DNA of 64,000 nt, taken from contig CM097885.1 in assembly GCA_044892525.1 (NCBI GenBank), forward strand, positions 11,844,001-11,908,000, given 5' to 3'. Origin of the DNA: Schmidtea polychroa (taxonomy: Eukaryota). A program made the translations under genes and the position numbers. Below are positions 1 through 40,247 of the stretch, one piece after another; the first letter of the stretch is position 1, and every line of letters begins with the position of its first letter. Under the pieces are notes generated by a model. That model saw only the letters and a program-made list of their open reading frames with translations, was not told where the DNA came from and searched no databases.

Positions 1-3000
1 CAACTCCTAAATAATGCCCAAATGCGTAACTTAAGTTTTTTCCTAGCCACGCGCGCTTATCATCATTATTACTTAGGGCAATTTTCGAATTTTTAAAAGT
101 AAAAAGTTGGTGATTTCTAGTACCTATTCTAGTCTGCGGTACAGAAATCACCTGATTTGAATTATAGCAATTTAGATATGTTTCATGATTTATTGATGTC
201 CGAGATAATTTAACCCCCTTCGCTTTTACCGTTTCCTTACTACCTAAAAGACTATAACATTTAGGGCGTAAGAAAACCCATTCAGAATACCCTAATCCCT
301 TGCTCTCATCTTTAAACTTCCCGATGACCGAGTCAAGGTTCCTACTATACAAGGGGTGGGTTGGATCGTAATTTGACGTATCCAATAAATTATCTGAGAT
401 CATTTGAGGTAATAGAGTTGTTAATTTTAAATTTTTAATTTCTAAAAAGAAACTGTCGGTATCACCGGCAATAATATTAATTATATATTTATATTGGCGT
501 CTGTACTTCTCCAAATCAATATATTGGAGCTGGTACATCCGCAGTTTAGACAGATCTAGTACTGTTTGACCAATGTAGCTAGGTCTGTCTAAACAAATCA
601 CATCTTTTTCCAAATGTGCCGCAATCAGATCGTTATCGATTCTTATGGACTTTCTGAAAGTCGGCTTTGAGGAGTATACTATCATCTTTTCGGATGAATT
701 ACACAACCTCAAATTCATTCTTTTTTTCAAATTTTCAACCGATTTACCGTAAAGAGAGTTATTATACAATTTAAACAAGTCCCTATATATCTCGCTAGTA
801 GACTGAGATCGTAAAGTGGTGTTGGTGTCTATGTAGGATTTAAAGATAGGTCCTTGTTTAAACTTTATACACCTATGAATATTTACAACAACCGCACCTA
901 ATTCTATATACAATTTGAGAAGCCTCCAATGAAGAACATAGTTCCTCTTTGGCCAATGCGTAAGCATAAGCTTCTCAACTTTTGAATTAGGTGGGCACAA
1001 CTTTTCCGGCGCAAGCGGAAAATCATTCAAAAAGTCATGCACACATTCCGGAATATCGATATCGACCTCCATAGTATACCCATATGGAAGGTTATCAATA
1101 TCCGTGTTCATACATTCAAGTAAAACATCATTCAAGTTATTATTCACCCAAGAAAAATCACCATACGGAAGATTTTGGCTAAGAGCCCAACCATACAGAT
1201 TATTTATATCAATGTACAATAATTCTGTATCATCTGAAGTAGCCGTGTAATGTTTGTTAACAAATGTTAACCCACCCCGGATACCTCCCTCATAGAAATT
1301 ATACATTTCCATGTCCTGCAGAAGTTCTATTGGTTCCGTTAATGTCATAAGCGCTGAGGCCCATGACATACCGGGAATCCCGTAGAAATTAAGAGGATCC
1401 AGACCATTGTAAGCAATTGCCTTACCGCGGAATTGCTGAAAATAATCTGCGAGGAGGTATACGTCCAATTTTAGGTAGATTAACATATAATCTAACAAAT
1501 TATTACAGTTATGCTGACTCCAAATTAGTTGAGCCTCAGCGTACTGATCTTCCGTAACATCAGACCAAATAGGAGGTAATTCTAAAGTCGATTCAAGAAC
1601 ATCTAAAGAAGTAGCGAAATTATATGGAAAGATACCTTTAGAGTGAATCATCGACCCTTGAAAGACAGACGAAGTCAAAGGAAAAGTAGTTAAGGTTTTC
1701 ACAGCTTTTGCTAAAGAACAATTAACAAATTGCATGCTGTCAATAAAACGAACAGGCAATTTGTTAATATATGCAATTAAAGATATAAATTTTTCTGTAG
1801 AGGTAGGTATAATATTAAGTTCCCAAAGGGGAAAATCACTGAGACCATGTTTTAAAATATGGTGGAGGTCATAGCCTCGTAAATTATGAAAGACAACAGG
1901 TAACAATTTATTAATCCTGCGAGAGACATTGCATTTCCTACATGCCGCTCCGACATATCTACCTGTAAAATGACAATGATCTCTCACAGGATTAATAATA
2001 GATTTTTTACACAAATAACAAATAGTGGAAGATCGAAAGGCACGCTCCTGAGCAAAAGACAAAGTAGACATACCTTTATGACCTTGAAGTTCATAATATG
2101 GCAGGACAATTGTGACAGCAATTTCCTCCACTTTCCTCAAAAAATCCAAAATACAATTAGGTCCAAAAAAATAATAATAAAATTTTGTGTTTGTATAATT
2201 ATTAATTAATAAAAGACCTGCTGATATGGGTAAATGTATTTGATGATATGTTTCATGTTCTGGTAAAACCGATTCAAAATCGGCATAAATTACGAAGGGA
2301 GGTGTAACTGTTTTTGCGTAATCTGTGAATAATAAATCTTTATTTTTAGGAAGTGTATACAAGGTTGTGCCAGTCTGATTTTTACAGCATAGAGCAACAT
2401 GCTGATCGAAAGCATTCTTATATCTAAAGCCATTTAAACAACGTGGGCACCAGTTACACCTTATTTGAACGTTAACATTTTCATTTTCATGACAATTCAT
2501 TAATTTGTCCAAGTCTGTCACGGCCGTATAATGATATTTATCTTTATTACTCAAAAGTAATAAATAAATTGGTCTACCGTCTATAACCTTGGAGCGATGT
2601 ACTATATTAAGATGAGGGTGGTGAGCTACATAATCCTCAGAAATATCTAAATCAGAACTGGCTGGATTATACGAAAGAACGTTTATGCTTAAATTTAAAT
2701 CACGATTTTTCCTTTCAAATTTAGGAATGTTGCATAGCCTCATCGGGCAATCGGTGTCTTCGTCATAATTTAATAGAGGTAAAAATTCTATATATTTGGC
2801 GGCTCTTTGGTGATTACGACCTATTTCTTCTCTTTTTAAAAGTGCAAGAATGCTATACAAGAAGCACTTATGGTCGTTGTTTTTAACGTTAATTATTGCA
2901 TGTTTTAATTTTAAAGCCGATGGGGTTTTTATATAGCTATGTCCGGATAATCTACTAACGGGTGCGTATTTCGTTAAAATAAAATCTATTTCTAAAATAT

Positions 3001-4232
3001 TCACTACTCGCCACCCGCTTCCTAAATAGGTGAATTGCTCAATCTTTTCATTTAATTTGCTCACCCCCTCGTTTATAAAGTTTGATGTAAAAACTTGAGC
3101 ATTGTTTGAAAAATAATTATCCCGGATCTCCCCATCTTTTTCAAATTTAATTAAAATTGTGAATTGTATTTTTACATTGCCCATCTTTTCTATTTCCTCT
3201 ATTAATCTATCTTCAATTTTTGATGTTAGGGCTATTTTAACCAGGTTTTCATTTCTTATATTAAATTTTAATGTTTTACGTGATCCATTCAAATCGGATT
3301 CTACCGTAGGTTCAAACAAAGAGCCGCCTATTTGAAATATGTTGAAAGACGTTGAAGCTACACATTCATCATTGATGACTATCACTTCTTGTTGTGTAAT
3401 GGGTGATTGTTGTGTAATGGGTGCTTGTTGTGTAAACGATGTTGAAGCTACACATTCATCTTTGCTGATGACTATCACTTCAGGTCGCGATAATTTATTA
3501 GGAATGCAATTTTTAATTAAACCAGCAGGTCTTTTAATAGAATCTTTTTTAATATTTATAATATCTTTTTTAATAATATTTATAGTATCTTTTTTAATAG
3601 CATCTTTTTTAATAGAATCTGTTTTTTCTTTTATAATATTTTTTTTAATATTTTTTAAATCTTTTTTAATATCTTTTTTTATATCTTTTTTAATAGTATT
3701 TTTTGGTAAATTTTTTGATAAATTTTTTTGTAATTTTTTATTTATTTTTTTAAATAAAACATTTTTTGATATCGAAAATTGCCCTAAGTGACAATGATGT
3801 TTATTAAAAAATTCCCTATATTTTACTTTTTCTCTCGTTACACATTTGGGGCATATAAAAAAGTTGAGCGAATTAAACGTCTTTTTGTAGTATTTTCTCA
3901 TTGTGCGATGACATTTATCGCTATGTCCATTTGCAGCTTGGCAATAATTTGGGTATAGTTTACCTGTTAAATAATAAAATTAAAGTTTTATTTTTTTTCT
4001 AATTGTTATTAATTGTTACATCTATAAGGATTTATCATCATTTGTTATTTAATTCAAATGAACTATATAACAAATGATGATAAATCCTTATAGAAAATAG
4101 GTTAATATATTCGAGAGAATATTAGAGAGATTTTAGTAGATAGGTCAGATTATTATATGAATATGTTAAATATTAGAGAGATTTTAGTAGATAGGTCAGA
4201 TTATTATATGAATATTAGACGAGTCAGATTAA

Positions 4233-4529: not shown

Positions 4530-6198
4530 TTAACTATTGTAGATGCACATTGCAAACTACAAGGATTTATTTTATAACTATAATTTTGTAATCACTTTTT
4601 TAAATACTTTGATTATATTTCAAAAACATAGTATTTTCTTCATAATTTTCGTCATATTTTCATCATAATTTTGGTCATATTTTCATCATAATTTTGGTCA
4701 TAATTTTGGTCATAAATCATTTTCATTTTGTTCATAAATTTTCGTCATTATTTCATAATAAATCATTTTCATCATAATTTTCTTCGTAAATCATTTTCAT
4801 CATAATTTTGGTCATAAATCATCATAATTTGGGCATAAATCATAAATCATCATAATTTGGGCATAAATCATAAATCATCATAATTTGGGCATAAATCATT
4901 TTCTTCATAATTTGGGCATAAATCATCATAATTTGGGCATAAATCATAAATCATCATAATTTGGGCATAAATCATTTTCTTCATAATTTGGGCATAAATC
5001 ATTTTCTTCATAATTTGGGCATAAATCATCATAATTTGGGCATAAATCATAAATCATCATCATAAATCATAAATCATCATCATAATTTGGGCATAAATCA
5101 TAAATCATCATAATTTGGGCATAAATCATTTTCTTCATAATTTGGGCATAAATCATCATAATTTGGGCATAAATCATTTTCTTCATAATTTGGGCATAAA
5201 TCATCATAATTTGGGCATAAATCATCATAATTTGAGCATAAATTCATAATTCATTTTCTTCATAAGTTTGATCATAAGGTTCATCAAAATATTTAAGAAA
5301 TTTTCATCAAAATATTTAAAAAAAAGTGATTACGAAATTTAAATATCAAAAATATATATATATAGAATAAATAAATCTTACATTCTGATTCCATATCGGA
5401 ATCTGAGTCTTCAGCAACCGAACTGAGGGTATTATCATCAATTGTTACATTTTCCATAAAATCTTCATCGATGAAATCTGAGTCTTCAGCAACCGAACTG
5501 AGGGCATTATCATCAATTGTTACATTTTCCATAATTTCTTCATCGATGTCGACATTGAAATTAAACGCTAAAAAATAAAATTTTTAAAAATAAATTACTA
5601 AAGTAAATAAATTTACTTTTTTCTTTGATAACCTTGGTTTGCCCAACATCAATAACTGGGGCGTCCGATTGTCCAAGAAAAATAATATCTTCATCACTAT
5701 TTTCATTAACATTTTCTGTAATGCAAATTAATTTAATAAAAATTAAAATAAATTTACTTTTTTCTTTGAAAACATAGTTGTGCCCAACATCATTAACTGG
5801 GGCATCCGATTGTCCAAGAAAAATAATATCTTCATCACTATTTTCATTAACATTTTCTGTAATGCAAATTAATTTAATAAAAATTAAAATAAATTTACTT
5901 TTTTCTTTGAAAACATAGTTGTGCCCAACATCATTAACTGGGGCATCCGATTGTCCAAGAAAAATAATATCTTCATCACTATTTTCATTAACATTTTCTG
6001 TAATGCAAATTAATTTAATAAAAATTAAAATATTAAATTTACCAAATATATTTTCCACATTTAAAATGGCATCGTTTTCTGTAACTTCGTACCAGTCGAA
6101 TGGTTCTAAAATAAAATATAATAAAAATCGAATAAAAATAATAATAATTTACCGTTACTCAAAAGACTTCTCAATACTCGATTCTTGTTGGTTTCCAT
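1..6198 (-). CDS. polB: Protein-primed family B DNA polymerase (pPolB), spliced, runs off the window edge. Predicted exons 6198-6153, 6105-6043, 5997-5899, 5856-5758, 5715-5617, 5567-5382, 3963-<1
   Basis: Absent from the ORF track, most likely because there is no stop in the window; the two ends of the main exon are in the same frame. Minus-strand translation gives IYADFE, RDHCHFTG, FHNLRGYD, KGIFPY, IRGG, YIDINNLYG, NSLYGKS, AGDTDS and AKGV, collinear with the 36-40 kb pPolB. All six GT-AG introns are phase 1 and keep frame. Confidence 0.9.
4630..5290. repeat. Minisatellite of CATAATTTGGGCATAAATCAT-type units inside the long pPolB intron
   Basis: Direct tandem variants with ~21-28 bp units. 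Confidence 0.85.
5617..6030 (-). repeat. Three tandem copies of a 141-bp unit (99-nt exon plus 42-nt intron)
   Basis: Exon starts at 5997, 5856 and 5715, each preceded by TTGCATTACAG and followed by GTAAAT. Confidence 0.85.
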
Positions 6199-6698: not shown

Positions 6699-7084
6699 TT
6701 AAACATCAAATTTTTTGTACAATAACCAAGCTAAACAATGTTGACCGCATGTTTGGGTCAAAGGATTTTGAAACATAGTTTTATTATACACAATAGGTTT
6801 TCCCATTGTTTGTAGTTTTGATATCAACAAAGCTGGGTAATAGAAACCCATAGGATCGAACACGAATATATTACCAGGTTTCACATATATAGCTATCCAA
6901 TGTTCTCCACCAAGATGAGACGATTGAGTATTGACGATTATTGCTTGATTATTGCTCAAATATGGAATTTTATCAAGAGGAAAAACTCCAACAAATTCAT
7001 TTCCCAATATCTGTTTTCCGATTTTATTGACCTGAACAGAACTATTTAAATAAATCCAGAGTATAAAAAAACAACTTACTCCAT
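6699..7084 (-). CDS. Adenain-like (C5) cysteine maturation protease; exons 7084-7080 and 7041-6699
   Basis: Motifs IVNT..GEHW, FDPMG and Q....CGQHC. The track ORF starts at TTG; a 38-nt GTAAG..TAG intron supplies the ATG (MDSVQVNKIGKQILGNEF). Confidence 0.9.
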
Positions 7085-7111
7085 GATAACTTTTTGTGTT
7101 TCTGTATACAT

Positions 7112-8335
7112 TTATACCAACACGGTTCTATTTGCAGTAATTTGAACTTCATTTTCAAATACTCCATATATTATAACATGTACTGGTTCTGTAATGGCTC
7201 TTGCAAACTTTATATCCAGTCGTAAATTCCCGTTTTGTGGTAATTGACTTTGATTTAAATCAAAATCAGGGGCTAAAACAAATGTAAAAAATGGGTATTT
7301 GCTTTTAAAATCTTCTAGTGTTATTCCGCAATTCAAATTTTTATCTAAATAACCCAGATTTCTAACAATACTCTGCATATATGTCGCACAGTAATTGTCA
7401 TTCTCGAAATCTTGAATATATGTTTCTCTATAATCAGTATTTTTCGACAAAGTCAATGATGTAACACCAAAGTTTTTGAAAATTGAGCTGGACGCAGTAT
7501 ATGATCCATTATATTGTGCTTCACTTTGAAATGTTATCAGAATAAAATTAGGCATTCTTCTGTCACCAAATATTTGTTCTTTATAGAATGATGAAGCACC
7601 TTTAGCAATAGCAAATTGTACAATTTCCTTTGTTTTTAATGGATAAATTGCATGTTTTGAATTAAGACCCAATTGATGACCTGCTAATACTGAGGGGTCT
7701 ACTCGAACTCTTCTCACCAATAATTTTGCATCAACTAATTGACATATTGGTGTAGTAGTTGCACTAGTAAGAGATAATGCAGAATCAGACCTTTTCAGTC
7801 TAATATGTACATTAACCCCCGGTAGTAAATATTTCGGTTGATCCATAAAATCAAGTTGTAACGATGAGCACATGGTGAAAACCTTTGAGCCTTTTACCCA
7901 CTTTTTTCTTTCATAATCTGCTGCTGCATAGCCCATAGGAGTAAGACATGTATTTTTAGTATCGGAATTGTAATTTAAAATAGTTTCTATTAATGCCTTG
8001 TGAATGAATGTATTATTTCCGCCCTCAATCTTAATATTATTAAATCCCAACACTGCATCTTTAAAAAGAGTATGAAACAGGAAATTGTTCGGTATTACAT
8101 CTGCATTGGCATCCAAAACTTTTCTATCTTTATCTACAACCTTAATCTGAACAGTCAATAAAGTATCATTCAAATCTAAATATTCGGTTTGCGAACCATT
8201 AATATAAAACTCGATATCATTTCTACTATCGGTAATTGAATTCATAGGAAAAACTTCCTCAAATGCCCCAAATTCTATTACAGCCTGGGGCGACGGTCTA
8301 TCAAATATACATAATTCGGATTTACCACAAATCAT
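7112..8335 (-). CDS. Major capsid protein (double jelly-roll, PY/hexon-like)
   Basis: 407 aa. CGKSELCIF N-terminus, EYLDLNDTLL, QPKYLLPGVNVHIRL and C-terminal GNLRLDIKF are typical of Polinton MCP; position next to the protease fits. Confidence 0.9.
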   Translation of the reverse strand: MICGKSELCIFDRPSPQAVIEFGAFEEVFPMNSITDSRNDIEFYINGSQTEYLDLNDTLLTVQIKVVDKDRKVLDANADVIPNNFLFHTLFKDAVLGFNNIKIEGGNNTFIHKALIETILNYNSDTKNTCLTPMGYAAADYERKKWVKGSKVFTMCSSLQLDFMDQPKYLLPGVNVHIRLKRSDSALSLTSATTTPICQLVDAKLLVRRVRVDPSVLAGHQLGLNSKHAIYPLKTKEIVQFAIAKGASSFYKEQIFGDRRMPNFILITFQSEAQYNGSYTASSSIFKNFGVTSLTLSKNTDYRETYIQDFENDNYCATYMQSIVRNLGYLDKNLNCGITLEDFKSKYPFFTFVLAPDFDLNQSQLPQNGNLRLDIKFARAITEPVHVIIYGVFENEVQITANRTVLV

Positions 8336-8703
8336 TTTGCAAATATAGTTCCATGTCCTTTCATTCGTTTGTTTATACGTGATATTCCATGTCTTTTACG
8401 TTTTGGAGCATGAGCTGGAGCTGGAGCTGGAGCTGGTTTTTGAAACATACCTGCAACCCCGGGTAAAACTTTCCCTAATTCTGCTAAAGCATTTGTTTTT
8501 AGAGATGGTAATATTTTCTGTTCATTCATAATAACATCTTTTGCAGTTTTCATACCAAAACTACCGATACGTTTAAGAATAGGCAATGCAAATCTACCTA
8601 TTGTTCTCAACCATCCTGATCCGTACTGTTTACCAATAAAATATGGTAAATCACCACCAGATTGGCTACCACTATACATACTAATAATATCAGAATTAGC
8701 CAT
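8332..8703 (-). CDS. Small Polinton core/PW-like precursor protein
   Basis: QSGG and QYGSG motifs followed by an amphipathic helix (WLRTIGRFALPILKRIG) and a basic tail. It overlaps the MCP start (ATGA). Confidence 0.7.
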   Translation of the reverse strand: MANSDIISMYSGSQSGGDLPYFIGKQYGSGWLRTIGRFALPILKRIGSFGMKTAKDVIMNEQKILPSLKTNALAELGKVLPGVAGMFQKPAPAPAPAHAPKRKRHGISRINKRMKGHGTIFAK

Positions 8704-9708
8704 TTATTTTACGAAAATGTAATGTCAAATGAGTTTTTGAGCCTTTTGGAAATTCGATTAATTGACCAGAATCATCTCTTATATTTATTTCTATATTGTT
8801 TATACAAGATGTTGAAACAGGTAAATACATGGGATTTTCTACATTGATTTGTACAACTTCATCTTGATCATGTTTTTCAATCCATATAGATTTCATTAAA
8901 GGTACACTAGAATCGCCAACAATAACTGGTTCCACGATATTACTGTAAATGAACATTTGCTGATGATGTTTAAGGATTTTCGGTTTGTTTGTTCCTTCAC
9001 AAATTTGTTCATTTTGTGTACATACTGGTTTAGTCAATCCTAATGTTTTTGTCAAATTTGAGTCAAATTTAACTTGACTAAGATTAGAATTTATACTAAA
9101 TCTAAATACTTTATCTTTTTGAAGCTCAAAAACTGTTAAAATATCGCTACAATTGTCACCTAAATAAGTTTGTAATTGTTCGAGGTCTGTAATATATAAA
9201 TTATCTTTAAAAGTATATGCATGCTCTGTTATTTCAATGTATGACAGCTTAAATTTGAATTCCACTAAATTATTAGTTTTCGGAAGTGTAGAGAGATTTA
9301 TTTTGACTGTATCATTAAATACATTACGTAAATCAGTAAATCCAAGACGTTTAGCATCAGCCACTGTAGAAAATATAATTTCGAATGACTTATTCAAGCA
9401 ATTCATGTATAAATATTGACCATCATCATAAATTATAGGTTTCCTTGATTTCGATGAACTCGTCAAGTTATAATTATCTTTATCAATAAGAACATTAATA
9501 TATTCCGTTACTGCTACTTTCTTATTATATTCAATAACAGATTTGCTATAGATTGGGAATAAATTGTATACAAATGTAAAATCCAAAAGAGCAACTTCCC
9601 AGTCATTATCCAAATAGATAGGGTTTTGGAGTTCGATGATGAATTTGCTTGATTTTCTGGATGAATTAATGGACAACTATTGCTCGGCAAAATAGTATAA
9701 AAATTCAC
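8696..9708 (-). pseudogene. Minor capsid protein (penton, PX); GTG start and a frameshift near 9646-9650
   Basis: The N-terminal motif FYTILPSNS..HPENQA is in a different frame from KFIIELQNPIYLDNDWEVAL. The C-terminus MFIYSNIVEP..GDS..PLM..NPMYLPV..IEINIRDDSG..LHFRK is intact. Confidence 0.8.
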
Positions 9709-10337
9709 TTTACTAGGTCTTTTGCTGATATCCATGACGGGTTTTGATAACCATGCCATTTGACATAGTATTGTTTATCCTTGCCGACCTTTTTAGTTTT
9801 CAATATTTTTTGAATTCTAAATACTTTTGGGGGAGGAATGACTTGTAATTCCTGCTCATAAAATTTCCCCTGTAAAATATTATTATCATTGTCTTTGATG
9901 ACATACATTACAGGATTCTGTTTAGTATTTATTTTTGAAATTACAAAGACTTCATCACTCCAATTTGTATCAAAATTTTTAATAAATGGTGATGCACTAA
10001 TTTTACTAATTCTAACATGGTCACCGACTTTATATTTAGGTTTTGCAATTTTTACAGATTTCTTAGAAGTCAATGATGTTTTTGATGTAATATCAACCGG
10101 TCTCAATCCATTCAGTCCTCGATGTGATGAATGATTATAACTTGTTATTATTTTCGGTAAAGCATTTACCCATTTTTTATTACCTTGATGCACGAACAAT
10201 TTCTTTAATCGATCTCTCAATGTTCGATTAAATCTTTCAACATGGGCAGCTTTGTATTGAGAATGTACCGAGTAGTGATTTATTTTCAGTTTATCGAGGA
10301 TTTGCTTAACTTTACTATTGTAGAATTCTTTACCTAA

Positions 10338-10417
<80 letters not shown>

Positions 10418-10805
10418 CTAAATCTGTTTGCAAGTTATTAGGATGTCCGTCTTTAAATAAAATATTAATTGCCTTGGACATTTCTTCTGCAGATTTTGCC
10501 TTGACCGGTATTGCTCGTGCAAACCTGCTGTATACATTAATACATGTTAAAATATATTTATTCCCATTGTTAATTTTCGAATATGGTATCATCTCCATCA
10601 AATCCATTTGCCATAAATCGTCAATACCAAATGTTTTATACGCTCTTGTTGGAAATCTTTTCCGCATTGGTTTGTTCAAACTGTACGCAAGCTGATCTGA
10701 TAACCACTTCTGGGTTTCTTTTTTCGAATTCGGAACTCTTTTGTTTAATTTTGCCACTCCACCGAAACCGGCTTCGTCTTCTGGGTTCGTCCAAATCTTC
10801 TCCAT
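9705..10805 (-). CDS. int: Retroviral-like (rve) integrase with C-terminal chromodomain; intron 10417-10334
   Basis: Motifs WQMDL, TDLG|KEF, HVERFNRTL, YNHSSH and YYVKWHGY. The poly-Ile run is an 84-nt GT-AG intron. Confidence 0.92.
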
Positions 10806-11418: not shown

Positions 11419-12045
11419 TCAACTTTGTTTATAAACCATGGCACCTTTTGGGTTGAAAATATCTGTTTTTACACGTAAATCATCGGGACATTGTTGTGTG
11501 AAATCAAGAAATATATATCCATGAGGTATTTTTGTAGCATCTTGAAATGCACTGATAAGAAAATTACGATTGTTAGGGTATGCTTGACGTGCAAGAAAAT
11601 CAATCACTGTTGCATCTCTAGGATTCTTGAAAATGACTAAATACTGTACATTTAAATTACGTGTTCGATGTGCCCCACCTTGATGAAATAGATTTTGAGT
11701 TATGAAAATAACTGTTACACCGACATGTCTGCTGATCTTTGTAAATAAATTATTAAAATCTTTTTCTTTATTAGCTTCTTGATACAAATCATCGATAATA
11801 ATGACATCACCTTTCTTTAATCGGCTGGACCAGTTTTTATCGAATCCCTTTACTATTTTCATGTTTTTTAATTTACAGAAACTTGATTGAGTTAATCCAT
11901 GTTCTTCATCAGCACCCCTATGCCAATAAATCCTGTTGAATTTTGATTTGAATAAATTTGATTTTAGTAATTTACAAACAAATAATGTTTTTCCACTACC
12001 ACTCGGACCAACGATTTGGTATACTGCATCATTTCTTAATTCCAT
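11419..12045 (-). CDS. FtsK/A32-like genome packaging ATPase
   Basis: Walker A GPSGSGKT, Walker B IIIDD, plus SRH, ITQNLF and FKNPRD. Confidence 0.93.
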   Translation of the reverse strand: MELRNDAVYQIVGPSGSGKTLFVCKLLKSNLFKSKFNRIYWHRGADEEHGLTQSSFCKLKNMKIVKGFDKNWSSRLKKGDVIIIDDLYQEANKEKDFNNLFTKISRHVGVTVIFITQNLFHQGGAHRTRNLNVQYLVIFKNPRDATVIDFLARQAYPNNRNFLISAFQDATKIPHGYIFLDFTQQCPDDLRVKTDIFNPKGAMVYKQS

Positions 12046-12144: not shown

Positions 12145-12582
12145 ATGTTAGCAAATATAAATTATCGAGGAAATTTTGATGTATCGAATATGAGGTTCCC
12201 ACCAGGGAAACCTCAGCAAATTATCGATAGAAGCGGGAAATATCCGATAATATTTTTCAAGACTGGTAAATGCAGAATCATGGGATGTAAGAAACCTTTG
12301 GATATTAATAAATTACAATATCGAATAAATAATATTAAAATCCAATCAATTACCGTTACTATGGATATGGGACATAGTATCAATCTATATAACATGTCGA
12401 AAAAATGTGATTGTATGTTTGAACCGGAATTGTTTCCGGCACTAAGACTAATAAAATATAACCCTATATGTGTCAACGTGTTTGCTAGTGGAAAGGTTGT
12501 CATGTTGGGGTTGAGAAATTTGGAGTATAGAGAATTTGTTGACAATGTTCGAAATGAGATAATTTCATTGGTCGATTTTTAA
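12145..12582 (+). CDS. TATA-binding protein (TBP)-like protein, 145 aa
   Basis: KIQSI..FEPELFPAL..VFASGKVVMLG resembles the TBP C-terminal repeat (FKIQN..YEPELFPGL..IFVSGKVVLTG). IIFFKTGKCRIMGCK resembles the N-terminal repeat (LIFSSGKMVCTGAK). Confidence 0.8.
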   Translation: MLANINYRGNFDVSNMRFPPGKPQQIIDRSGKYPIIFFKTGKCRIMGCKKPLDINKLQYRINNIKIQSITVTMDMGHSINLYNMSKKCDCMFEPELFPALRLIKYNPICVNVFASGKVVMLGLRNLEYREFVDNVRNEIISLVDF

Positions 12583-14483: not shown

Positions 14484-14998
14484 TTATTTAAAAAAACGAC
14501 ATAAAACATATAAAATAGCAACACCTGTTGCAAGTTTTAAATAGTTTTTAAATTGGATTTTTTGCTGATCTAATTCTTTTGCATTTCTGGCGAGTCGATT
14601 CAGCACGCCCCATCCGCCATTGGCTTCAATCCATGGCTGAAACTTTGACTTGATTATCTAGAAAATATATATTAATAAAATATAGATTATAAAAGTATTA
14701 CTTCTTGAGACCACTGATAATAGTGCTCGGAATCCAATAGGCTTTTTTCAATTATTATCTTCATATAAGCGAACCCTACTAATATTCGGGTCCACTTCAT
14801 CTCCTCGTCGCATAAGCAATTAAATATTCTATTAAAATAGAATTTCTTTGTTTCGAGGGAATCGGAATTGAGGACGTCCTCATAATCAATGTGATTACCT
14901 TCTATAATCTTTTCGGTCCGATCGACCAGGAAAATTAGGCTTTCCATAATATTCTTGTTGATGAGTTCTCTGCACATATTTTCCATTAAATTAGACAT
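14484..14998 (-). CDS. Bcl-2-family protein, 156 aa; exons 14998-14702 and 14657-14484
   Basis: BH1-like EEMKWTRILVGFAY. After a 44-nt intron come BH2 PWIEANGGWG and a hydrophobic tail anchor LATGVAILYVLCRFFK. Confidence 0.82.
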
Positions 14999-15103
14999 TT
15001 TTACAATATTTTAAAATATGATGTTTTATTTATACTAATACCGGATGATTTTGATTGGTTGATAGACTATAAATGTAAAAGAAAGGTTTTGATTTGATAC
15101 ACC

Positions 15104-15601
15104 ATGAAAACTATATTCATATTGCTAATTATTATAACGAGTGTGTGCTCACACAATACAACAATAACAGTGGAGTCTTTTAATAAATCAATATGTGTTT
15201 GTCCGAATACAGCCAAGTTGATGGATATTTTATATATTCTCGACAAACCAAAATAGTCAAAGCATCCAGGAAAAAGAATATCTCAAAGATTGGAGAATTT
15301 AGAAAACAGTTATGAACTATCATTTGAATATATACAAAATATAAAATTTGAATTGATTGATCATATTAAGGTTTTCAATAACTCTATTGTTGAAAATAAA
15401 ATGAATATGAAAATAATTGATAAGAAGCATGATTATTTGTTAAAAAAGATTGAATTATTATTAAGAGAAATTCAAACAATCAAAGGATCAATAGAATCTC
15501 TGAAGATCAATTCAACGTTACCAATTTCAAACAATATTGCTGCGAATAGTACATCAATATTTAGTTTACCTTTGTTAATTTTACATTATTTTATTGTTTA
15601 A
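15104..15601 (+). pseudogene. Secreted/GPI-type coiled-coil glycoprotein gene with an in-frame TAG at 15254-15256
   Basis: Signal-peptide-like MKTIFILLIIITSVCS; sequons NTT, NKS and NST x2; heptad-like middle; hydrophobic C-terminus. The frame is the same on both sides of the stop. Confidence 0.6.
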
Positions 15602-15726
15602 ATAAATGTATGTTTTGTTGATTTGTTGATTTGTTGAGCGTGACCAGTACCCTTGTGAGCATTACCCATAGGGGGACAAAATATTTTGTCGGATAGACTA
15701 GGAGTATATAGACTCGGAGTATATAG

Positions 15727-15883
<157 letters not shown>

Positions 15884-16044
15884 GTAACAAGATATATAGC
15901 TCATTCGAAAGGTCTTGGATTGAGCTTTAAAATGAGCTATCGATTATTAATTTTCGTTGGCGGGAACTTTGAAAAAATTAAAAATAAAATAATAATATTT
16001 TTAAAAATAATAATAAAAATAATAATATTTTTAAAAATAATAAT

Positions 16045-16810
16045 ATGACCTTGATGAGTCATCGCGATGACTCATATGACCTTGGCAATGACCTTGGATG
16101 AGTCATGCGACCTTGAAAATGACCTTGATGAGTCATAGGATGACTCAGATGACCTTGAAAATGACCTTGAAAATTTTTGATGAGTCATGGTATGAGTCAT
16201 ATGACCTTGAAAAAATTTCGATGAGTCATAGTATGAGTCATATGACCCTGAGAAATTTTTTTTCAAGGTCATATGAGTCATAGTATGAGTCATTTGACCT
16301 TGAGAAAATTTTTTCAAGGTCACATGACTCATACTATGACTCATATGACCTTGAAAATGACCTTGATGAGTCATAGGATGAGTCAGATGACCTTGAAAAA
16401 AATTTTTCAAGGCCATATGAGTCATATTATGACTCATTTGCCCTTGAAAATGACCTTGATGAGTCATAATATGAGTCATGGTCTTTGTTTAAATGACCTT
16501 GAGAATTTTGATGAGTCATACTATGAGTCATACGACCTTGGGAAAAATTTTCAAGGTCATATGAGTCATAGTATGACTCATACGACCTTGAAAATGACCT
16601 TGATGAGTCATGGTCTTTGTTTAAATGACCTTGAAAAATTTTTTTTGACCTTGATGAGTCATATTATGAGTCATACGACCTTGAAAATGACCTTGATGAG
16701 TCATAGGATGAGTCATGGTCTTTGTTTAAATGACCTTGAGAATTTTGATGAGTCATACTATGAGTCATGGTCTTTGTTTCAATGACCTTGATGAGTCATA
16801 TGTCTTTGTT
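16045..16810. repeat. Subterminal repeat array of ATGAGTCAT/ATGACTCAT and TGACCTTG motifs (probable TIR interior of element 1)
   Basis: Dozens of interleaved copies directly inside the terminus. Confidence 0.85.
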
Positions 16811-17139
16811 TAAAAAAAATTTGTACTTTTAGACTTAGCATATTTTTGAAAAATATGATGACGGGGGGGGGGTACTGTGCTAGCGGTGCCCTGTGCCAGC
16901 AGTGCCCAATCCATCTACTGACATTAACTTGCAGGTCACTCTATTTTCCAAGATTTAAGTTATTTTTTCAATATTGCAGGCTAAAACTCGTGTTTACTAC
17001 ATGTCGTTTTTGCCATAAGAAATAAACTCACAAAACCACCATCAAATACCACAGTCAATATGTAAAGAACATTCATCGGCATTGCGTCCAAGTTGCAAAA
17101 CTAAGTGTTGAAGTTATCAAGATCAAGAATAATATATAT

Positions 17140-20100
17140 TAGGGTGGGTCGAAAATTTTTTTTTTCTCCAAACATGCCTAAAAAGTTGTGCTTATGCTAG
17201 AAAATGAAATATCCCTGCAAAAGACTGCTGTTTAAAAGGGTTTACAGGTCCCAACTTTTGTTTGTATGTATTAGTACTATCCCAGTAAAAATGCTCGCAC
17301 ATGTGCCATTGTAAATTCATCCTGCAAGCAGTCACACGCTTGCAGAAAGACCATTTTTGACATGCTCTATTCACAAGTCCAAGCTAACGCGTGCATGTAT
17401 AGAGAGGTTAATTCACGGAAGCACCTTCACACAAGCACTCACAAAGACAATTTCTTCTGAACAATACTAACACACACACTACAGTCAACACATAATCCAC
17501 ATGGATACTACTAGTCAGTCTAAACTCAGATAATTTAATTTGTTTCGATTGGATGTCAAGTGTTTGCTGGACATAATTAAAAAAGTTAACTTGATGATTC
17601 ACTTTTATTTTGCCAGAGCTGAGTACAGAAGAGCAGTTATGAAGGGACAGAGAAATAAGCAATTTCGCAAAACAAGAAGTAAATCACGTCATTGTCTGTT
17701 TGGTCAAACTTGTGAACTACCCAGAAACCAATTACCTACTTGTGAAGATGTGTTTCGTGATTACTGTTACAATGAGAAATGTACGCAATTTCATACTGGC
17801 TTTAACGAACAAGCAACTCTTCTCGCAAATAAGGTGAAGGAAATTTATATGAAGGCAAGTATCCCAACTGTTGAGTTCAGTAGTATTGTGGTTCGTGTCA
17901 AGCGACTAATATCAAAAGTGCGTGAATTAGAGAAGTATCCAGTATGCAAGAGGTCATCTGCCAAATTTCAAGATAAGTTAAGCTCGTTTTCCAAATTGTT
18001 TGACATATGTTGCTGCAAATGTTTTAATGATGGTGCTCGTGGAAGAAGTCAGTGTACATGCCGATTGGCCTTGAAAATTCCTACCTTAGAGTGGGAGTTC
18101 TGGATTGACCAACAAACTACCAGAAACATGAAAATCGGAAATACGGACAGACAGGAAACCTCAAAATTGAAGAGAAAACAAACGAAAAGCAGCCCTACAG
18201 GAAAAGGAAAACAAATGAAAAATGAAATAATGGACACTGAAGTTAACGATCTACATCCGACCTCAAGAAGTGACACGGAGAGTGAAGCCGCTAGTGATGA
18301 AAGTAAAGATAAGTTAGACAATTCAACAGAAAGCTCAGAGTCAAGCGTAGAAGAATGTGATGAATTTCAAAATAGAAGACATTATCCTGAATTAAGTAAA
18401 GCTGTTGACAGATGTGGTGTGAGCAACAGAGACACGTGTTTGCTAGTAAACGCTTTTCTGAAAGATATGGAACTGTTATCCTCTCAAACAATCATCGATC
18501 CCGCAAAATTACGGCGTCAGAGAAAGTACTGGAGGGAGAGAGAAATTGAACAGCATTCAGCAGAAGCGAAAAACTTGATTTGCCTCGATTTCGACGGGAA
18601 ACAAGATTCCACCTTACTTCATAGAAGGATCCTAAAAGAGGAGCATTATGTGATTGTCGCCTTTCCAGGGGATACATATATCGATCATGTTGTACCTCAA
18701 AGTAGTAAAGCTGTGGATATTGGCAAAGAAATCATGTCAATCATCGTTAGCACGCAGTCCTCACTGACCCTTCAAGCAATTGTGTGCGATGGAACCAATA
18801 CAAACACCGGAAAAAATAATGGAATAATCAGAAGACTCGAAAAAAGCCTAGGGCGACCTCTACAATGGCTGATATGCTTGTTGCATGCAAATGAATTGCC
18901 ATTCAGGAAGTATTTTTCAGTCGTCGATGGTGGAGAAACAAAAGGTCCAAAAACGTCATGTGGTGAAATAGGAAGCGTTCTTGATTTTGATCCAAAAGAC
19001 AAGCCCGTAGTAGCCTTTATGTCCCTTCCTGGAAAGGTCGTAGATATTAGTGAAAATGTCAAGAAAGAATTGAACACTGATCAATTGTATTTCCTCAGAG
19101 TATGCTTGGCAGTCCAGAAAGGGTACCACAACAACAAGGATGTCCCTTTTCTACAAATGGCACAACCAGGAAATTTGAATCACAGTCGCTGGCTAACGAA
19201 AGCTAATAGAATTCTGCGACTATATATGTCCGAAACTGCTCCATCTGAACCTCTCATGCGAATAGTGAAATTTATTGTCAATTTCTATGGACCGTCATGG
19301 TTTTATATAAAGATTCACTCGTCATGCCAAGATGGTGCAAGAAATATTTTTTATATGCTCCAACTTCTGCAGGATTTGGATCCATCAGACCAAGAAATCA
19401 TCTTTCCTGTCATTCAGAACAACAATTACTTCTCACATCCAGAAAATATACTCCTAGCTGCTGTTGGTGATGATGATGAAGAAATCAGAAAGTTTGCAAC
19501 AGAAAAAATCATAACTGCAAGACAAAATTTTCTCCCTTCCGAAGTGATTCGCACTATGGACAAGAATACTGTCTTTCTTCAGTCGTCTGCTACATCATAT
19601 GCTGACATGATTGACTGGACAAAATGTAATTTGACGCCTCCCCCTCTTTTATCTCATATATTGGATCATGAATTGAAGATGAATAAGAAAATTACATTAG
19701 AACAATTTCCCTGTCATTCTCAAGCCGTTGAAAGAGCCATCAAAGATGTTTCTTCTGCCAGTTGCAAAGTGTTTGGTCACAAGTCCAGACATGGTATGGT
19801 ACTACTGTGTAAAAAATCAAGGAAGGAATTGCCCAAGGTGCAAAGCAAAGCTGATTTCATGTGACTTCTTTTTATGCCCTCGCTAATACATTTCTAAACT
19901 TTTGGCTGGATGTTTTTAATAAAAAATAATTTCGAAAGTTGATTTTTGTCTTTGAAAAGGATAATTCAAATTTGGCCCTTCCTAATCACTGACGTTGTCA
20001 GGATATATTTCAATGCGGGATGAGGACACAGAATATACTATCTCAGCCCAAGAGAGTAAATAATATACTTATAAGCTCTTAAGAAAGCTACATCTAAATA

Positions 20101-24100: not shown

Positions 24101-26044
24101 TGTCATAATTAACTGTAATGTATTCTTCATTTTTTAATGAATTATAAAAAGAAACTGAGAAATATAAAATTAAAATTAAACTTTTATTTTCTAATTTTAA
24201 TTGTTATTTATTTCACACAAATTTTCTGCATAACTTTTTTCAGGTGTTTGTCAATTCATCTTAATTTATTTGTTTAAATCATTGGGGCTATATGAAAAAC
24301 GCTTAAAATTAATTAAAATTTCAATAATAAAATTTAAAAAATAGAAATTAAAAACAAAGTTAATCATTACAAAATATTCTGGATCCTACAAAGTATAAAT
24401 TAAAAATACAAAAAAATTAATTAATTAATTAAATAATTAAAAAATAATTTACGTCATTAATCATTATGATGGTTGCAACAAAATTGTTATTTCGCCATGC
24501 AAAAAAACAATCAGTTAAATTAATACAATTTTTATTTTTTATTTTAGAATCTTTTCAGTAGCTTTTAGAAAAAATGAGAAGTTAATGTTTAAATAGCATT
24601 TAAGTAAAAGTTAAAAAATCAAAATATGTAAAAATCGCATTTGTTGTCGAAAAAAGAGAGATTCAGGTGTAGTTAGGAGAGCCGTAACAAGGGTGGTGCG
24701 AGCGGTGGAGTCGCACAGGGCGCACATCTGAAAGAGGTGCAAAATTGGGATGTAACATTTTTTTAATGTTATCAAAATTTAACAAAATATAAATAAAATA
24801 ATTATCAAATGGCATTCACGAAACAAAATGGCAAATTAGGTAGCCTGTCTTTAACATTACTGTTGGACTGGTCTATTAGGTGTGTATTTTGTAAAATATT
24901 AGTTCACAAAATGGGTTCTTGAGTAGGTAGTTAGGAGCCTACGGGAACAATAGGGGGGGGGGTAAAAAATGTTGCAAACTTTTGATTGCATAACTTTTTC
25001 CGTAGACATTTTTTGATTACATAATTGTTGCCGTAATGCCCAATGTTTTCTGGGATTTTAAATACAAAATTTTTTTTTCAATAAACAAGCCAAGGATAAA
25101 TATTATTTGGGTGGGTCTCCTTGGTCCTGAGAATTTCAATAGAAAAAGGTAGTCTTCAATAAAAAAGCATGGATTTTTCACACAATAGTGAGGGGATCTT
25201 CTTGGTCATGAGAATTTCAATAGAAAAGATGGTTTACATTAAAAACACATAGTAAATTTTTAAAATAAAGCAAATTATTGGTCTAAAATTTAAAAATAAA
25301 GTAAATGATGGGTCTAAAAAATTTAAGTAAATCAGGGTTCAGATTTTTTTTGAAATAAAGTAAATTATGGTCTAAATAAGTAAATTATGGGCTAAGATTT
25401 TTCAATTAAAGTAAATTATGGTCAAAATTTTAAAATTAAAGTAAATTAAGGTTCTAAAAATTAAATTACAGTAATTAATGGTCCAAATTTTTAAATTAAA
25501 GTAAATTTAGGTTCTAAAATATTAAATTAAAGTAAATAATTGTTCAAAATTTAAAATTAAAGTTAATTAAGGGCTCAACTAAGTAAATTATGGTTCAAAT
25601 TTTTAAATTAAGTAAATAATGGTTCTAAAAATTAAAGTAAATTAAGGTCCTAAAAAATTAAATTACAGTAAATAATGGGCACAAATAACTAAATTAAGGT
25701 TCTAAAAAATTAAATTAAAGTTAATTAAGGTCCAAATTTTAAAATTAAGTAATCAATGGTAAAAAAAAATTTTAAATTAAAGTTAAATAAGTAAATTAAA
25801 GTAATAATTTTTAAATAAGTAAATTAAAGTAAGATTTTAAAATTTATTAACAAAAAGTTGAAATAATAGAAGGTGTTTGAGAATTGAAATTTTTTAATGA
25901 AAATTTTAATGAAATATTTTTCAATGATAATTTTTAATGAAAATTTTAATGAAATAATTTTTTAAGTAATTTTAGATGGAAATTTTTATGGAATATTTTT
26001 CAATGTTAATTTTTAATGGAAATTTTAATAGAATAATTTTTTTT

Positions 26045-26123
<79 letters not shown>

Positions 26124-26315
26124 TATTAGTAATAATATATCAACCAAATACTATACAACACATAAAAAATTAACTAAACACATAAAAATAACTAGACACA
26201 TAACAAAACATATAAACATTAACTAAACACATAAAAATGAACTAGACACATAACAAACATAAAAATTTACCAAACAAATAACAAATGTATAGATATAAAC
26301 TTTTATTTAATAAAA

Positions 26316-29300
26316 TTAGTCCTCATCGGACAAAATAACGTCATCGATATCGATGTCATCTTCTCCAAAATCTTCATTTAATTCTTCCTCATCTTCTCCA
26401 AAATCTTCATTAAATTCTTCCTCATCTTCTCCAAAATCTTCATTTAATTCTTCCTCATCTTCTCCAACAATTTCTGCAACATTTTCTCTAATATTAAATT
26501 CACTTAATCTTACATGCCCATATGCAAGACTAGTATTTTCCCCCACCCAAACCCTTTTGTCGTCTTTGTTTGTTAGTGCTATTTTTGTGTTTTTAATTGT
26601 AAAAATTTGATGATTTTTGCTTGTTATTTTAGTCTGAGGAACCGAAAAAATCTGGTTAGTGTTATAACAATCCAGGTATGACTGATGTTTTATGTCACTA
26701 CCTTTCAATGTTACACCTTTAGCCTTTTTTGTTTCCTCATCACCCAACAAGCTATAACATTTAGGTCTAAGAAAAACCCATTCCTTATATTTAAGACCTT
26801 TATTCTCGTCTTTGAACTTTCCAATGACTGAATCAAGGTTCTTACTATATAAGGAATGACAACTATTGTAATTGGAAGTATCTAATAAATTATCTCGAAT
26901 CATTGCAGGTAAAAGAACCTCGAGTTTACAGTTAATGACTTCGAGGAAAAAAGAATCTGTATCACCTGCAACGATATTAATTTTACAATTAAACTCATTG
27001 CGAAATGATTCCAGATCCTTATATTGCAATTCATACATTCTAAGTTTAGATAGATCAAGTACAGATTGACCAATGTAACTTGGTCTATCTAAACATATAG
27101 AATCTGAATTCAATAATGCCGCGATTAAATTATCGTCTATTTTAATAGATTTTTTAAAAGTTGGCTTCGAAGAATATTTAACTAATTTATCGGCTGTTGT
27201 ACAAAGACGAAGATTCATTCTTCTCTTTAAATTTTCAACTGTTTTGCCGTATAAACTGTTATTTAGCAATTTATAATAATTTTTATCTAAGTTATTTATG
27301 CTTTTTGACCTTAATTCTGTATTTGTATCTATATATTTTTTAAAAATTGGAGATTGCTTAAATCTTACACCCCTATTTACACGTGTTACTTTAACACCAA
27401 GTTCCAAATATAATTTTAATAATCTCCAATGAATAACATAATTAGATTTTGGAAGATGAGTTAATAATAATTTTTCAACCTTAGACCCAGCAGGTTTCAT
27501 TTTTTCAGCAGCTACAGGGAAATCATCCAACTTATCATGAAGCTCAGAAGGAATTACAAGATCAACTTCAAGAGTGTATCCATAAGACAAAGATTCAAGA
27601 TTTAAATTCCTACATTCATCTATTATTAAATCAAATCCATCAAGAACCCAACTAAATTCGCCACAAGGTAATGATTGACTTAAAGCCCAACCATAAAGAT
27701 TATTAATATCTATATAAAGTAACTCGGTGTTCTCGTCGGTTTTTACGTAATGCTTATTGACAAAAGTAAGACCGCCTCTTATTCCACCCTCATAAAAGCT
27801 AAACATTTCGTTTTCAGTTATGAGCTCAATTGGTTCATTTAGAGACATTAATGCAGAAGACCAAGACATACCTGGAATTCCGAAATAATTCAATGGTTCC
27901 AATCTATTGTGAGCAATGGATTTCAACCGAAACTGATGAAAGAAATCAGCCAAAAGAAAACAATCAAGTTTTAGGTAGATCATCATATAATCTAATAAAG
28001 TTACGCAATTAGTTTCTACCCAAATCTCCTGAGCTTTTTCATACTCAAGCTCAGTGACACCTTCCCAGATTGGTGGTAATTCATAAGTAGTTTGGAGAAT
28101 ATCTAAAGAAGTGGCGAAATTATAAGGGAAGATTCCTTTTTCAGAAACTATAGTACCAGAAAAAGCAGAATTAGTAAAAGGCAAAGAATTCAAAGTTTTG
28201 ACTGCTTTAGCTAAAGAATCATTGACAAATTGATAAGAATCAATGAATCTTAAGCTAATTTTGCCTAAATGAGCAATCAAAGAAATAAATTTTTCACTCG
28301 TTATTGGGATGCAACCTAAAGTCCAATTTTTAAATTTATTTAATCCATATTTAAGTATATGATGCATATCGTATCCCTTCAAGTTATGAAATACGATAGG
28401 CAAAATTTTATTTATTTTCCTATTTATGTTACATGTGCTACAAGCTGCACCCAAGTATTTGCCCGTAAAATGATCGTGATCTCTAACAGGATCGACGATA
28501 GATTTCAAACAAAGATAACAAACGGAAGCACTAAGAAATTGATGTTGTTCAATTTTCGTTAATTTTATCATTGGTTTCCTACCCATTTTATAATAAAAAG
28601 GAAGAACCTTATTTAATGCTATATCCTCTATAGCACTTAAAAAACTCTCGACGCAATCTAAACCTATGAATTGTTGATATGATTTAGATCCGTCAAAGTT
28701 ATTTACTAGTAAAAGACCAGCAGATATTGGCATGTGTCGTTGGAAATGAAGATTATCAGAAGGTAAAATAGCCTCAAAATCGGCATAAACTACAAAAGGA
28801 GGAGTTACTGTTTTCGACCAGTCAGTAAACTGTAAGAATTTATTTTGAGGGAAAGTGTAAAGAGTTGTTCCTAATTGATTACGTTTACATAATATTTCAT
28901 GTTTTTCCAGTGCGTGTTTATACCTAAACCCATTCAAACACCGATGGCACCATAATGATTGTATGCGTGTAGGACAACTAGTTTTTATGTGGCAATTCAG
29001 TAACCTATTTAAATTACTTATAGCGACGTAATGGAAATTGTTTCCTTTATTTAATAATAGTAAATTAATTACAGTTCCATTTAAAACTTTGGAACGATGT
29101 ATAATGTCTAAATGTGGATGTTTTAAAACGTAATTATCTGTTAATTGTTTGCTATTGTCATAAGAAAAAACATTAATTATTAAGCCGGGATTTTTGGCCT
29201 CAAATTTTCTAATGTCTTTTAATTTCATGGGTAAATCTAATGGATTATATATTAAGTCTGATAAATTATAACTGGACGTCCTATTTCTATATTGTCTAAC

Positions 29301-30729
29301 AACCTCATCATATTTTAAAATAGCTAAAATGCTATATAAAAAACATGAATCATCGGTGTTTTTTATATTAATTAAACAATATTTATTTTTTAGACAAGTA
29401 GGTAGTTCAATGAAACTCCTACCACTTAATCTACTTAACCTACTTATTTTTGTTATGGTGAAGTGGATTTCAGTTATTTTTTTTATGATCCAACTACTTC
29501 CTAACTCTGTGATATTACTTATTTTCTCGTTTAGTTCCCTAATGCCTTCGTCAAAAAATGATGCAGTTAAAGGTTTTGCGTAATTCGAAATATTATTAAC
29601 CTTTATTTCCCCGTCTTTTTCAAATTCGATTGTTATTCCGAATTGAATTTTGACGGAGCCTAATTCGTTAATAATATCTCGTAATTTTATAATTAATCGT
29701 TCTGGAAATATTATTTCCTTTATATTCAAGTCGCTAGTATTTAAACTTAAAATTTGATGTGTACCCCTTAAATCTTTCTGTATTATGGGAACATTACCCC
29801 CTATTTGTATTATATTTAATCCATCCCAAGAATCAAAGGAATTGAATAATCCGACCTGGGATTCAACAACTAATCCGACCTGGGATTCAACAAAAGGCAA
29901 TCCGACCTGGGATTCAACAAAAGACAATCCGTCCTGAAATTCAACAACCAATCCATCATTGGATTCAACAACTAATCCGACCTGGGATTCAAAAGAAGAA
30001 GTATCTAATTTAATTTTTTTATTTGTATTATTTTTTTCTATAGTCGAAGGTCTTTTAAAAACACTATCTTTTTTAAAATTAAACCTATCTAAATGTTGTT
30101 TATGTTTATTATAAAAAACACTATATGTTACAGGGTCACTAGTCTTACATACGGGACATATAAAATATGTTTTATTATAATATTTTTTCGTGTAATAATT
30201 CTCCATTATAGAATGGCAATTATTATCATGTTCTTTCGATGAACAATAATTTGGATAAAGTATACCTATAAAATAAAAATTTAATAAAAAAAATATATAT
30301 ATAATTTAAATGAAATATTTTAATAAATGTTTACGCAAAAATTTACAAATTTTATTTACTAAAAAAAAATAAAAATTTACTAAATTAAAAATATTAACAT
30401 TTAATTAAATAAAAAATTATATTAAATTTCCTTTAAATTATATAAAAAAGTAATCAATACTTACATTGTAAATTTTCATTTCGATTTATTGACACATTGA
30501 CATAATTTTTCTCTTTATTCGTATTACCTAAATTATTAATTAATTAAATCAATAAATTAAAAATTATGTTTACTTTTTCTTTTCAAATTTCCTTTAATCT
30601 TCGATTTTAAATTGTCTTCATTAATATTATCTAAATTAATTAATAAATTAATTAATAAATAAATTAAAATTTACCAAATTCCTGAATTTTTTCTCGAACA
30701 TTCATAACGTTTTCTATTAAAGAATTCAT
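26316..30729 (-). CDS. polB: pPolB, left-arm copy; exons 30729-30675, 30630-30574, 30527-30465, 30265-26316
   Basis: 1296-aa ORF with Exo motifs (YADFE, HNLKGYD, YLKLD) and Pol motifs (YIDINNLYG, KLLNNSLYGK, GDTDS, KAKGV), an OTU-like NTDDSCF..HY segment, and upstream phase-1 micro-exons. Confidence 0.93.
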
Positions 30730-33004: not shown

Positions 33005-33311
33005 AGTAGGTAGTTAGTGGCCCGCTGCAAATGCAAGCCTTTTTTTATGCGGCACGATTTTTTTTTTACGGCAACTTTTGATTGCGCAATTGTTGCAACT
33101 TGTTTTTTTTTTTGTATTGAAAATTCTAGAAAAAAAAATAATACAGTTGCGTAATAATCCAAAAAAAAAATACAACAAAAAAAACTAGTTGCAACAATTG
33201 CGTAATAAAAAGTTGCAACAAAAAAAAGTTGCAACAAAAAAAAAGTTGCAACAACCCCCCCCCCCCCCCCGGGGGGGGGTAATTGTTGCAGCGGGCCACT
33301 ATCTACCTACT
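33005..33311. other. Central junction module bounded by terminus-like inverted repeats
   Basis: AGTAGGTAGTTAGTGGCCCGCTGCAA...TTGCAGCGGGCCACTATCTACCTACT, with an asymmetric interior containing GTTGCAAC repeats and a poly-C/poly-G run. Confidence 0.8.
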
Positions 33312-35449: not shown

Positions 35450-35520
35450 GATTGGTTAGAATTTGTTCCTATAAACAATAATAATCTATAAACAATAATA
35501 ATCTATAAACAATAATCAAT
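35450..35520 (+). promoter_or_regulatory. Putative Pol II promoter of the right-arm pPolB (inverted CCAAT plus triplicated TATAAACAAT)
   Basis: GATTGG at ~35450 and three TATAAA units 45-90 nt before the predicted ATG at 35557. The element-1 pPolB shows the same layout. Confidence 0.5.
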
Positions 35521-35556
35521 CATTATTCACATTTAACAAATAATTAACCTTTAAAA

Positions 35557-39994: not shown

Positions 39995-40186
39995 TTTTAT
40001 TAAATAAAAGTTTATATCTATACATTTGTTATTTGTTTGGTAAATTTTTATGTTTGTTATGTGTCTAGTTCATTTTTATGTGTTTAGTTAATGTTTATAT
40101 GTTTTGTTATGTGTCTAGTTATTTTTATGTGTTTAGTTAATTTTTTATGTGTTGTATAGTATTTGGTTGATATATTATTACTAATA

Positions 40187-40247
<61 letters not shown>

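Follow-up and report, generated by a model that had tools for sequence, protein, structure and literature searches.

The window analysed here is a stretch of 64,000 nucleotides from Schmidtea polychroa, and on its minus strand, at 14484-14998, lies a Bcl-2-like gene in two predicted exons, with the following parts:

14702..14998, minus strand: exon 1 of the Bcl-2-like gene (99 aa, helical, BH1-like region inside)
14658..14701, minus strand: predicted GT-AG intron, phase 0, 44 nt (11% GC, stops in all three frames)
14484..14657, minus strand: exon 2 (57 aa plus stop; end of the Bcl-2 domain, BH2 and C-terminal tail)
14786..14797, minus strand: BH1-like KWTR, residues 68-71, replacing NWGR (placed by alignment to the NWGR of A1; W-T-R kept in relatives)
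14610..14633, minus strand: BH2-like WIEANGGW (exon 2 translation)
14487..14534, minus strand: candidate tail anchor, a short hydrophobic stretch with basic residues at its end (hydropathy)
15029..15034, minus strand: TATAAA, a possible promoter 36 nt upstream of the ATG (consensus match in AT-rich DNA)

Read without splicing, the gene is an open reading frame of 103 aa (14998-14687, minus strand) that starts at the ATG at 14998 and stops four codons past E99. A GT at 14701 directly follows codon 99, and joining there to the AG at 14658, after which the frame stays open for 57 codons to the stop at 14484, gives a predicted product of 156 aa. The GC content of the predicted intron (11%) compares with 35% and 34% in the exons, and 44-nt windows with at most five G+C numbered 18 of 8276 in the element's coding DNA. 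Three other in-frame AG acceptors, at 14648, 14642 and 14636, would give introns of 53, 59 and 65 nt; we preferred the 44-nt acceptor because exon 2 read from it matches Pfam family PF00452 (positions 86-100), whereas the two shorter versions tested (from the 53- and 65-nt introns) gave no match at E≤1. An alternative donor at 14779 was discarded, as it would delete most of helix 5.

Conditional on this splice, the gene carries the BH2 W..GGW: in the six frames of the 64 kb, WIEANGGW was the sole match to a BH2-like pattern that occurred 0.005 times per window in 200 shuffled windows, the pattern having been written after the motif was seen. The exact NWGR of BH1 is absent, with KWTR or QWTR in its place in 8 of 8 sequences (the gene and seven relatives); KWTR aligns with the NWGR of A1/Bfl-1, keeping Trp and Arg, in a region at the start of helix 5. 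At the C-terminus, 12 uncharged residues (exon-2 residues 42-53) precede a basic end, with a best hydropathy of 1.94 over 15 residues and 1.27 over 19. The gene anatomy as described in the sequence-only reading is real: its coordinates, phase, intron length and 156-aa product were correct when recomputed from the sequence, the ORF does end before BH2, and NWGR is indeed altered to KWTR. The transmembrane tail also claimed there held up as a hydrophobic tail and not as a full-length anchor, since with only 12 uncharged residues it makes a short, marginal anchor candidate. No second copy of the gene was found within the 64-kb window, and an Rfam search of 14484-17200 returned no match.

Upon searching each exon alone against 24,736 Pfam families, a check proposed along with the sequence-only reading, we found PF00452 as the only match for both, and in the right order: exon 1 at positions 10-67 (E 0.03, 15.3 bits) and exon 2 at positions 86-100 (E 0.26, 12.3 bits), although both scores, taken separately for each exon, lie below the gathering score of 31.4 bits. 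All seven members of the exon-1 alignment matched PF00452 (best E 0.0008; best relative exon 1, 20.4 bits), whereas none of 17 other window ORFs did so at E≤1 and none of 86 ORFs of related elements at E≤0.1. Against PDB sequences, A1/Bfl-1 filled the top six of eight rows for exon 1, and Bcl-xL or Bcl-2 all 40 rows among the matches listed for exon 2; the exon-1 profile ranked A1/Bfl-1 first, followed by two schistosome Bcl-2 proteins and Bak (weak, E 0.7-1.8), with four falcipain rows of similar score. Cellular A1/Bfl-1 and Bcl-xL are the best sequence matches to exon 1 and exon 2, respectively, and both are very distant from the Maverick gene (E 0.02-0.5).

By ESM Atlas features, the best cluster for exon 1 was a Bcl-2 cluster (46% of members; 0.91, 204/256 shared), a weak match with a recognition of 1945; exon 2 alone gave no usable match, and neither exon had a match in PHROG. 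A model of exon 1 alone, built from seven sequences, had four helices, including one from residue 65, at pLDDT 70.6 and pTM 0.52. As it covers half of the protein with a seven-row alignment, its comparison with known structures carries little weight: nothing came up at E≤0.001 in PDB, where the Bcl-xL entry 5b1z ranked 33rd with E 5.1, or in BFVD, and nothing at Z≥8 in a wide structure search, where a p53/Bcl-xL fusion stood in the last row at Z 4.7. Judged by its sequence matches, the gene is kin to the Bcl-2 family, and its product very probably has the whole Bcl-2 fold.

We found seven relatives of exon 1, from short ENA contigs and 64-86% identical, which are called ORFs compared as protein over exon 1. 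Conservation is strongest over residues 67-83 (14-17 of 17 identical across the seven, versus 13-23 of 30 for residues 1-30), and W-T-R is present in every one. All seven also stop 3-13 codons after the E99 position, before BH2; in six of them the residue after E99 is Val, as a GT donor would give, while one (P0009) has Gly-Ile-Tyr, so its donor register differs. Because W-T-R and the interruption are both common to 7/7 relatives, we regard them as family traits and not as decay of a single copy. A search of a 1.84-billion library returned one exon-1 relative, an exon-1 profile search only three proteins that had already been found, and none of four candidate stretches in viral contigs, of 122 in JGI metagenomes, or of 28 candidates for a longer protein also matching exon 2 was confirmed. 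The one match to exon 2, of 11 residues in a phage-like ORF, was dismissed as chance. Among 14 sequencing runs listed in a search, 10 contain the stretch or part of it and none is recorded as RNA. Taken as a prediction, the 44-nt intron is very probably spliced out, and the gene is probably a functional, spliced Bcl-2-family cargo.

The surrounding DNA belongs to a virus-like element with these further features:

14..3979, minus strand: family-B DNA polymerase (PolB), stop-free frame (phrog_1907, E 8.8e-20)
6699..7127, minus strand: adenain-type protease (PF00770, E 3.6e-6)
7112..8335, minus strand: double jelly-roll major capsid protein (model pLDDT 82.5; Foldseek E 3.6e-15)
8696..9730, minus strand: minor capsid (penton)-like gene with a frame change near 9660 (frame comparison with relatives)
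9705..10805, minus strand: rve integrase plus chromodomain, with an 84-nt GT-AG insert at 10417-10334 (PF00665, E 1.2e-5; PF00385, E 3e-4)
11419..12045, minus strand: A32-type packaging ATPase (PF04665, E 3.6e-7)
12145..12582, plus strand: TBP-like accessory gene (PF00352, E 1.3e-15; in related elements too)
16040..16800, no strand: tandem-repeat block, probable subterminal region of the element (repeat analysis)

PolB, rve integrase, double jelly-roll capsid, A32 ATPase and adenain are hallmarks of a Maverick/Polinton of the adintovirus type. In Foldseek, the capsid model matched the double jelly-roll capsids of PBCV-1, iridovirus and mavirus (best E 3.6e-15). The penton label at 8696..9730 is one we presume from gene order and motif. 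In its relatives, 14 of 19 frames exceed 200 codons and the other five end at contig edges; the frame change near 9660 may be decay or an assembly error. The Bcl-2-like gene sits in the right arm: after the TBP-like gene come three ORFs without clear family, the Bcl-2-like gene, one further ORF and the repeat block. No left end matching the 16040-16800 block was found in the window, where the PolB end lies at the window edge.

For comparison we kept 80 of 113 ATPase loci of related elements, which have the core gene order in common; the closest of them also have the TBP-like gene, a compact 145-aa ORF (12145-12582, plus strand) that recurs in several related elements at about 50% identity. ATPase and capsid searches of viral contigs gave nothing. 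The Bcl-2-like gene went undetected in the related elements: an exon-1 profile run over 4962 of their ORFs (at least 30 aa) reached a best E of 0.16, and Pfam on 85 of 189 accessory-arm ORFs plus one shorter ORF showed no Bcl-2, about three related loci (L006, L022, L023) spanning the equivalent slot in the same layout and small exons possibly escaping notice. What the variable arm of related elements does hold is TRAF, RING, E2 and dual-specificity phosphatase genes as host-control cargo. Since related arms hold other genes and no detected Bcl-2, the gene looks like exchangeable cargo, a comparison in which few loci span the slot. The sequence-only reading had called it an accessory gene, and the PolB, integrase, ATPase, adenain and capsid context bears this out for a predicted spliced Bcl-2-family gene inside a virus-like element; the best explanation, as far as sequence can tell, is that the gene is a divergent member of the Bcl-2 family, borne as variable cargo by an endogenous Maverick/Polinton of the adintovirus type in its accessory arm.

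In or beside the variable arm of L002 (178-3325), L006 (225-722), L007 (1665-2168) and L013 (2-1260) we noted TRAF (RING-zinc finger-MATH), RING, ubiquitin E2, dual-specificity phosphatase and a glycosyl-transferase-4 gene, and L006 has two penton-like genes in tandem. In the window itself, the 16040-16800 block contains 31 TGA[C/G]TCA sites in 761 nt versus 2 in 8901 nt of element body; we take these sites to be AP-1-like, and the block might act as an enhancer that responds to stress. Between PolB and protease (5293-6148, minus strand) lie pieces of acidic ORF that contain tandem units of 141 nt and are probably multi-exon. Two long ORFs (17594-19864, plus strand; 52048-54306, minus strand), which appear transposase-like, are 36% identical to each other with no clear Pfam match, the first sitting between short inverted repeats near 17128 and 20322. 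A giant near-perfect palindrome at 24922-41265 holds two PolB copies (26316-30206, minus strand; 36080-39994, plus strand) that are 59% identical to the element's own PolB, with no capsid-sized ORF between or beside them, and a second large inverted-repeat structure at 41918-50957 has 43- and 54-nt tandem units.

The intron layout of the gene departs from that of its cellular relatives. In nearly every animal bcl-2 gene, an intron directly follows the TGG codon of the BH2 GGW (PMC7527217). This canonical BH2 intron is absent from the Maverick gene, where GGC GTG follows the GGW TGG codon, and the 44-nt intron is positioned 16 codons upstream of the canonical site, a layout consistent with a gene that was captured as a processed copy, or that lost its intron, and later gained a new one. 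The 84-nt integrase insert (10417-10334, minus strand) is in-frame, has GT-AG ends and consists of an ATT run between two TTTAGGTA copies; it lies inside the QTDLG-KEFY motif, and 22/22 related integrases show a 28-residue gap exactly there. An ATPase tree of 69 rows, serving as a proxy for the integrase, nests the window's element among loci without the insert, which suggests a gain, and the insert looks like a recently gained intron. Reading it as such makes splicing of the element's genes plausible.

Intact vertebrate Mavericks are described as intronless (PMC8097293), and introners are reported inside dinoflagellate polinton-like elements (PMC12166617). The Bcl-2 cargo without the ancestral BH2 intron but with a new 44-nt one, together with an integrase (ATT)n intron that lies between two copies of an 8-nt repeat containing AG/GT inside the catalytic motif, led us to consider that spliceosomal introns arise de novo in the genes of this Maverick lineage, with host splicing then gating the element; we hold this to be distinctly unlikely. 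If it were true, retention would leave the Bcl-2 protein at 103 aa, lacking BH2 and anchor, and lengthen the integrase by 28 residues, and splicing would yield the working forms, possibly in some cell types only. As a separate observation, the PolB frames near 3964 and 30268 (minus strand) start just past AT-rich, AG-ending acceptor-like sites followed by similar peptides, which suggests a spliced 5′ exon.

For the function of the gene we propose that host Pol II would transcribe it from the TATAAA 36 nt upstream of the ATG, and that host splicing would remove the 44-nt intron to give a helical protein of 156 aa, whose short C-terminal tail may enter the mitochondrial outer membrane or ER. Its groove would capture the BH3 helix of host pro-death proteins via the Arg that KWTR retains, the Thr that stands in for Gly might shift or narrow the binding range, and the host cell would be kept alive during replication and integration of the element. 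We assign a probability of about 0.58 to this full account of a spliced pro-survival Bcl-2 cargo of a Maverick; within it, pro-survival action is reasonably probable once a Bcl-2 fold is granted, and an anti-apoptotic role appears likely from sequence comparison. Pro-survival action is favoured because the closest matches (A1/Bfl-1, Bcl-xL) are pro-survival and because exon 1 has no BH3-core pattern (L-x3-G-D type; no match to four such patterns). In the family, the Arg of NWGR contacts the BH3 Asp, and Gly and Arg both matter for interactions; orf virus ORFV125, which has SPGR there, is functional, although it binds Puma about 250-fold less tightly (PMC9027176). Since KWTR keeps the Arg and loses the Gly, altered binding specificity is to be expected. 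Loss of NWGR in adenovirus and murine herpesvirus Bcl-2 (PMC7199394), as in ORFV125, indicates that the motif is not required of viral members.

A spliced Bcl-2-fold protein whose Thr-altered groove acts on autophagy, calcium or innate signalling, instead of mitochondrial apoptosis, is an unlikely reading that has several points in its favour. The Gly of NWGR is replaced in all eight sequences, the TRAF, RING, E2 and phosphatase cargo of related elements points to signalling targets, and several poxvirus Bcl-2-fold proteins block NF-kB signalling. Viral Bcl-2 proteins are described as modulators of autophagy as well (PMC11209288). The gene nevertheless retains everything that death-regulating members usually have, with BH1 Trp/Arg, BH2 GGW and a hydrophobic tail. 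A pro-death or selfish role, in which a Bax/Bak-like or decoy protein kills or sensitises cells, is improbable: nematode Maverick cargo did become the msft-1 toxin (10.1101/2022.07.12.499685) and Bak is among the weak matches, but pro-survival A1/Bfl-1 and Bcl-xL rank first, exon 1 lacks a BH3 core, and no partner antidote gene was identified.

Whether there is a working product at all was weighed in the same way. If the 44 nt were an unspliced insertion, the gene would be a dead or truncated 103-aa remnant, and decay may well occur in this element copy, whose penton-like gene appears broken. Against this, all seven relatives, the most distant at 64% identity, have the interruption together with a conserved core, the 44 nt have GT-AG ends and low GC, and exon 2 is open to its own stop with BH2 kept, which makes a remnant very improbable. 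That the Bcl-2 likeness is due to chance is scarcely credible, for although the two single E-values are weak, two separate pieces, 44 nt apart, choose one family of 24,736 in the right order, and all exon-1 alignment members match PF00452 with negative controls. The spliced pro-survival cargo thus stands as the preferred reading.

The literature already has examples of Bcl2 in adintoviruses, of Maverick cargo with introns and of a viral Bcl-2 gene with two exons. Bcl2 and IAP homologs have been observed in adintoviruses (PMC8502044), and homologs of anti-apoptotic genes or of oncogenes appear to be encoded by the majority of mammal-associated adintoviruses (PMC11071296). Like the gene described here, the homologs of adintoviruses and animal Mavericks are Bcl2-like accessory genes beside PolB, integrase, ATPase, adenain and capsid; intron and motif detail is not given in the main text of that paper, so that the comparison with our predicted spliced gene and its KWTR is by description (PMC8502044). 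In nematode Mavericks, spliced host-derived genes occupy a variable arm between terminal repeat and integrase, as cargo with introns beside a core described as intronless; that cargo consists of proteases and kinases, whereas here the core integrase also has an intron-like insert (10.1101/2022.07.12.499685). The viral Bcl-2 HVT vNr-13 also has two exons, with BH1, BH2 and TM tail, but it belongs to a herpesvirus and retains NWGR and the host exon-intron layout, neither of which the Maverick gene has (PMC7199394). ORFV125 also has a changed BH1 (SPGR; PMC9027176). Adenovirus E1B-19K, named in the sequence-only reading, is likewise a divergent vBcl-2 in a related virus lineage, and the 12th-ranked Atlas cluster (0.84) had E1B-19K among its members (20%); there was no Pfam match to the E1B-19K family, however, and the likeness is one of analogy.

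Planarian Burro LTR retrotransposons also combine an apoptosis-regulator domain with a giant mobile element, although their BCL2-like motif is part of a polyprotein in a retroelement (PMC6431247). This bears on the further step taken in the sequence-only reading, from the gene to an infectious or germline-persistence lifestyle, which the Bcl-2 gene does not support: Burro elements have such a motif too, related Maverick fragments gave no Bcl-2 match, and the minor-capsid gene has a frame change. It is the capsid module that speaks for a viral phase of the lineage, and not the Bcl-2 gene. Our literature search, which was not aimed at 'KWTR', found no paper that deals with how introns are laid out in a Maverick Bcl-2 gene or with its motif, and 10.64898/2026.10.13.758929 makes no mention of Bcl or apoptosis.

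Less usual are the absence of the near-universal BH2-splitting intron, the presence of an intron 16 codons upstream and the element's own integrase insert; the shifted intron and the insert may be recent intron gains with a visible mechanism. With this gene, the known cargo of animal Mavericks gains a Bcl-2 subfamily that is divergent and apparently conserved, and the view of what Mavericks are stays unchanged. As Maverick Bcl-2 homologs are named from sequence only in the papers compared, a 156-aa protein with a fixed W-T-R would be an easy test of whether they block death and of how far BH1 can drift.
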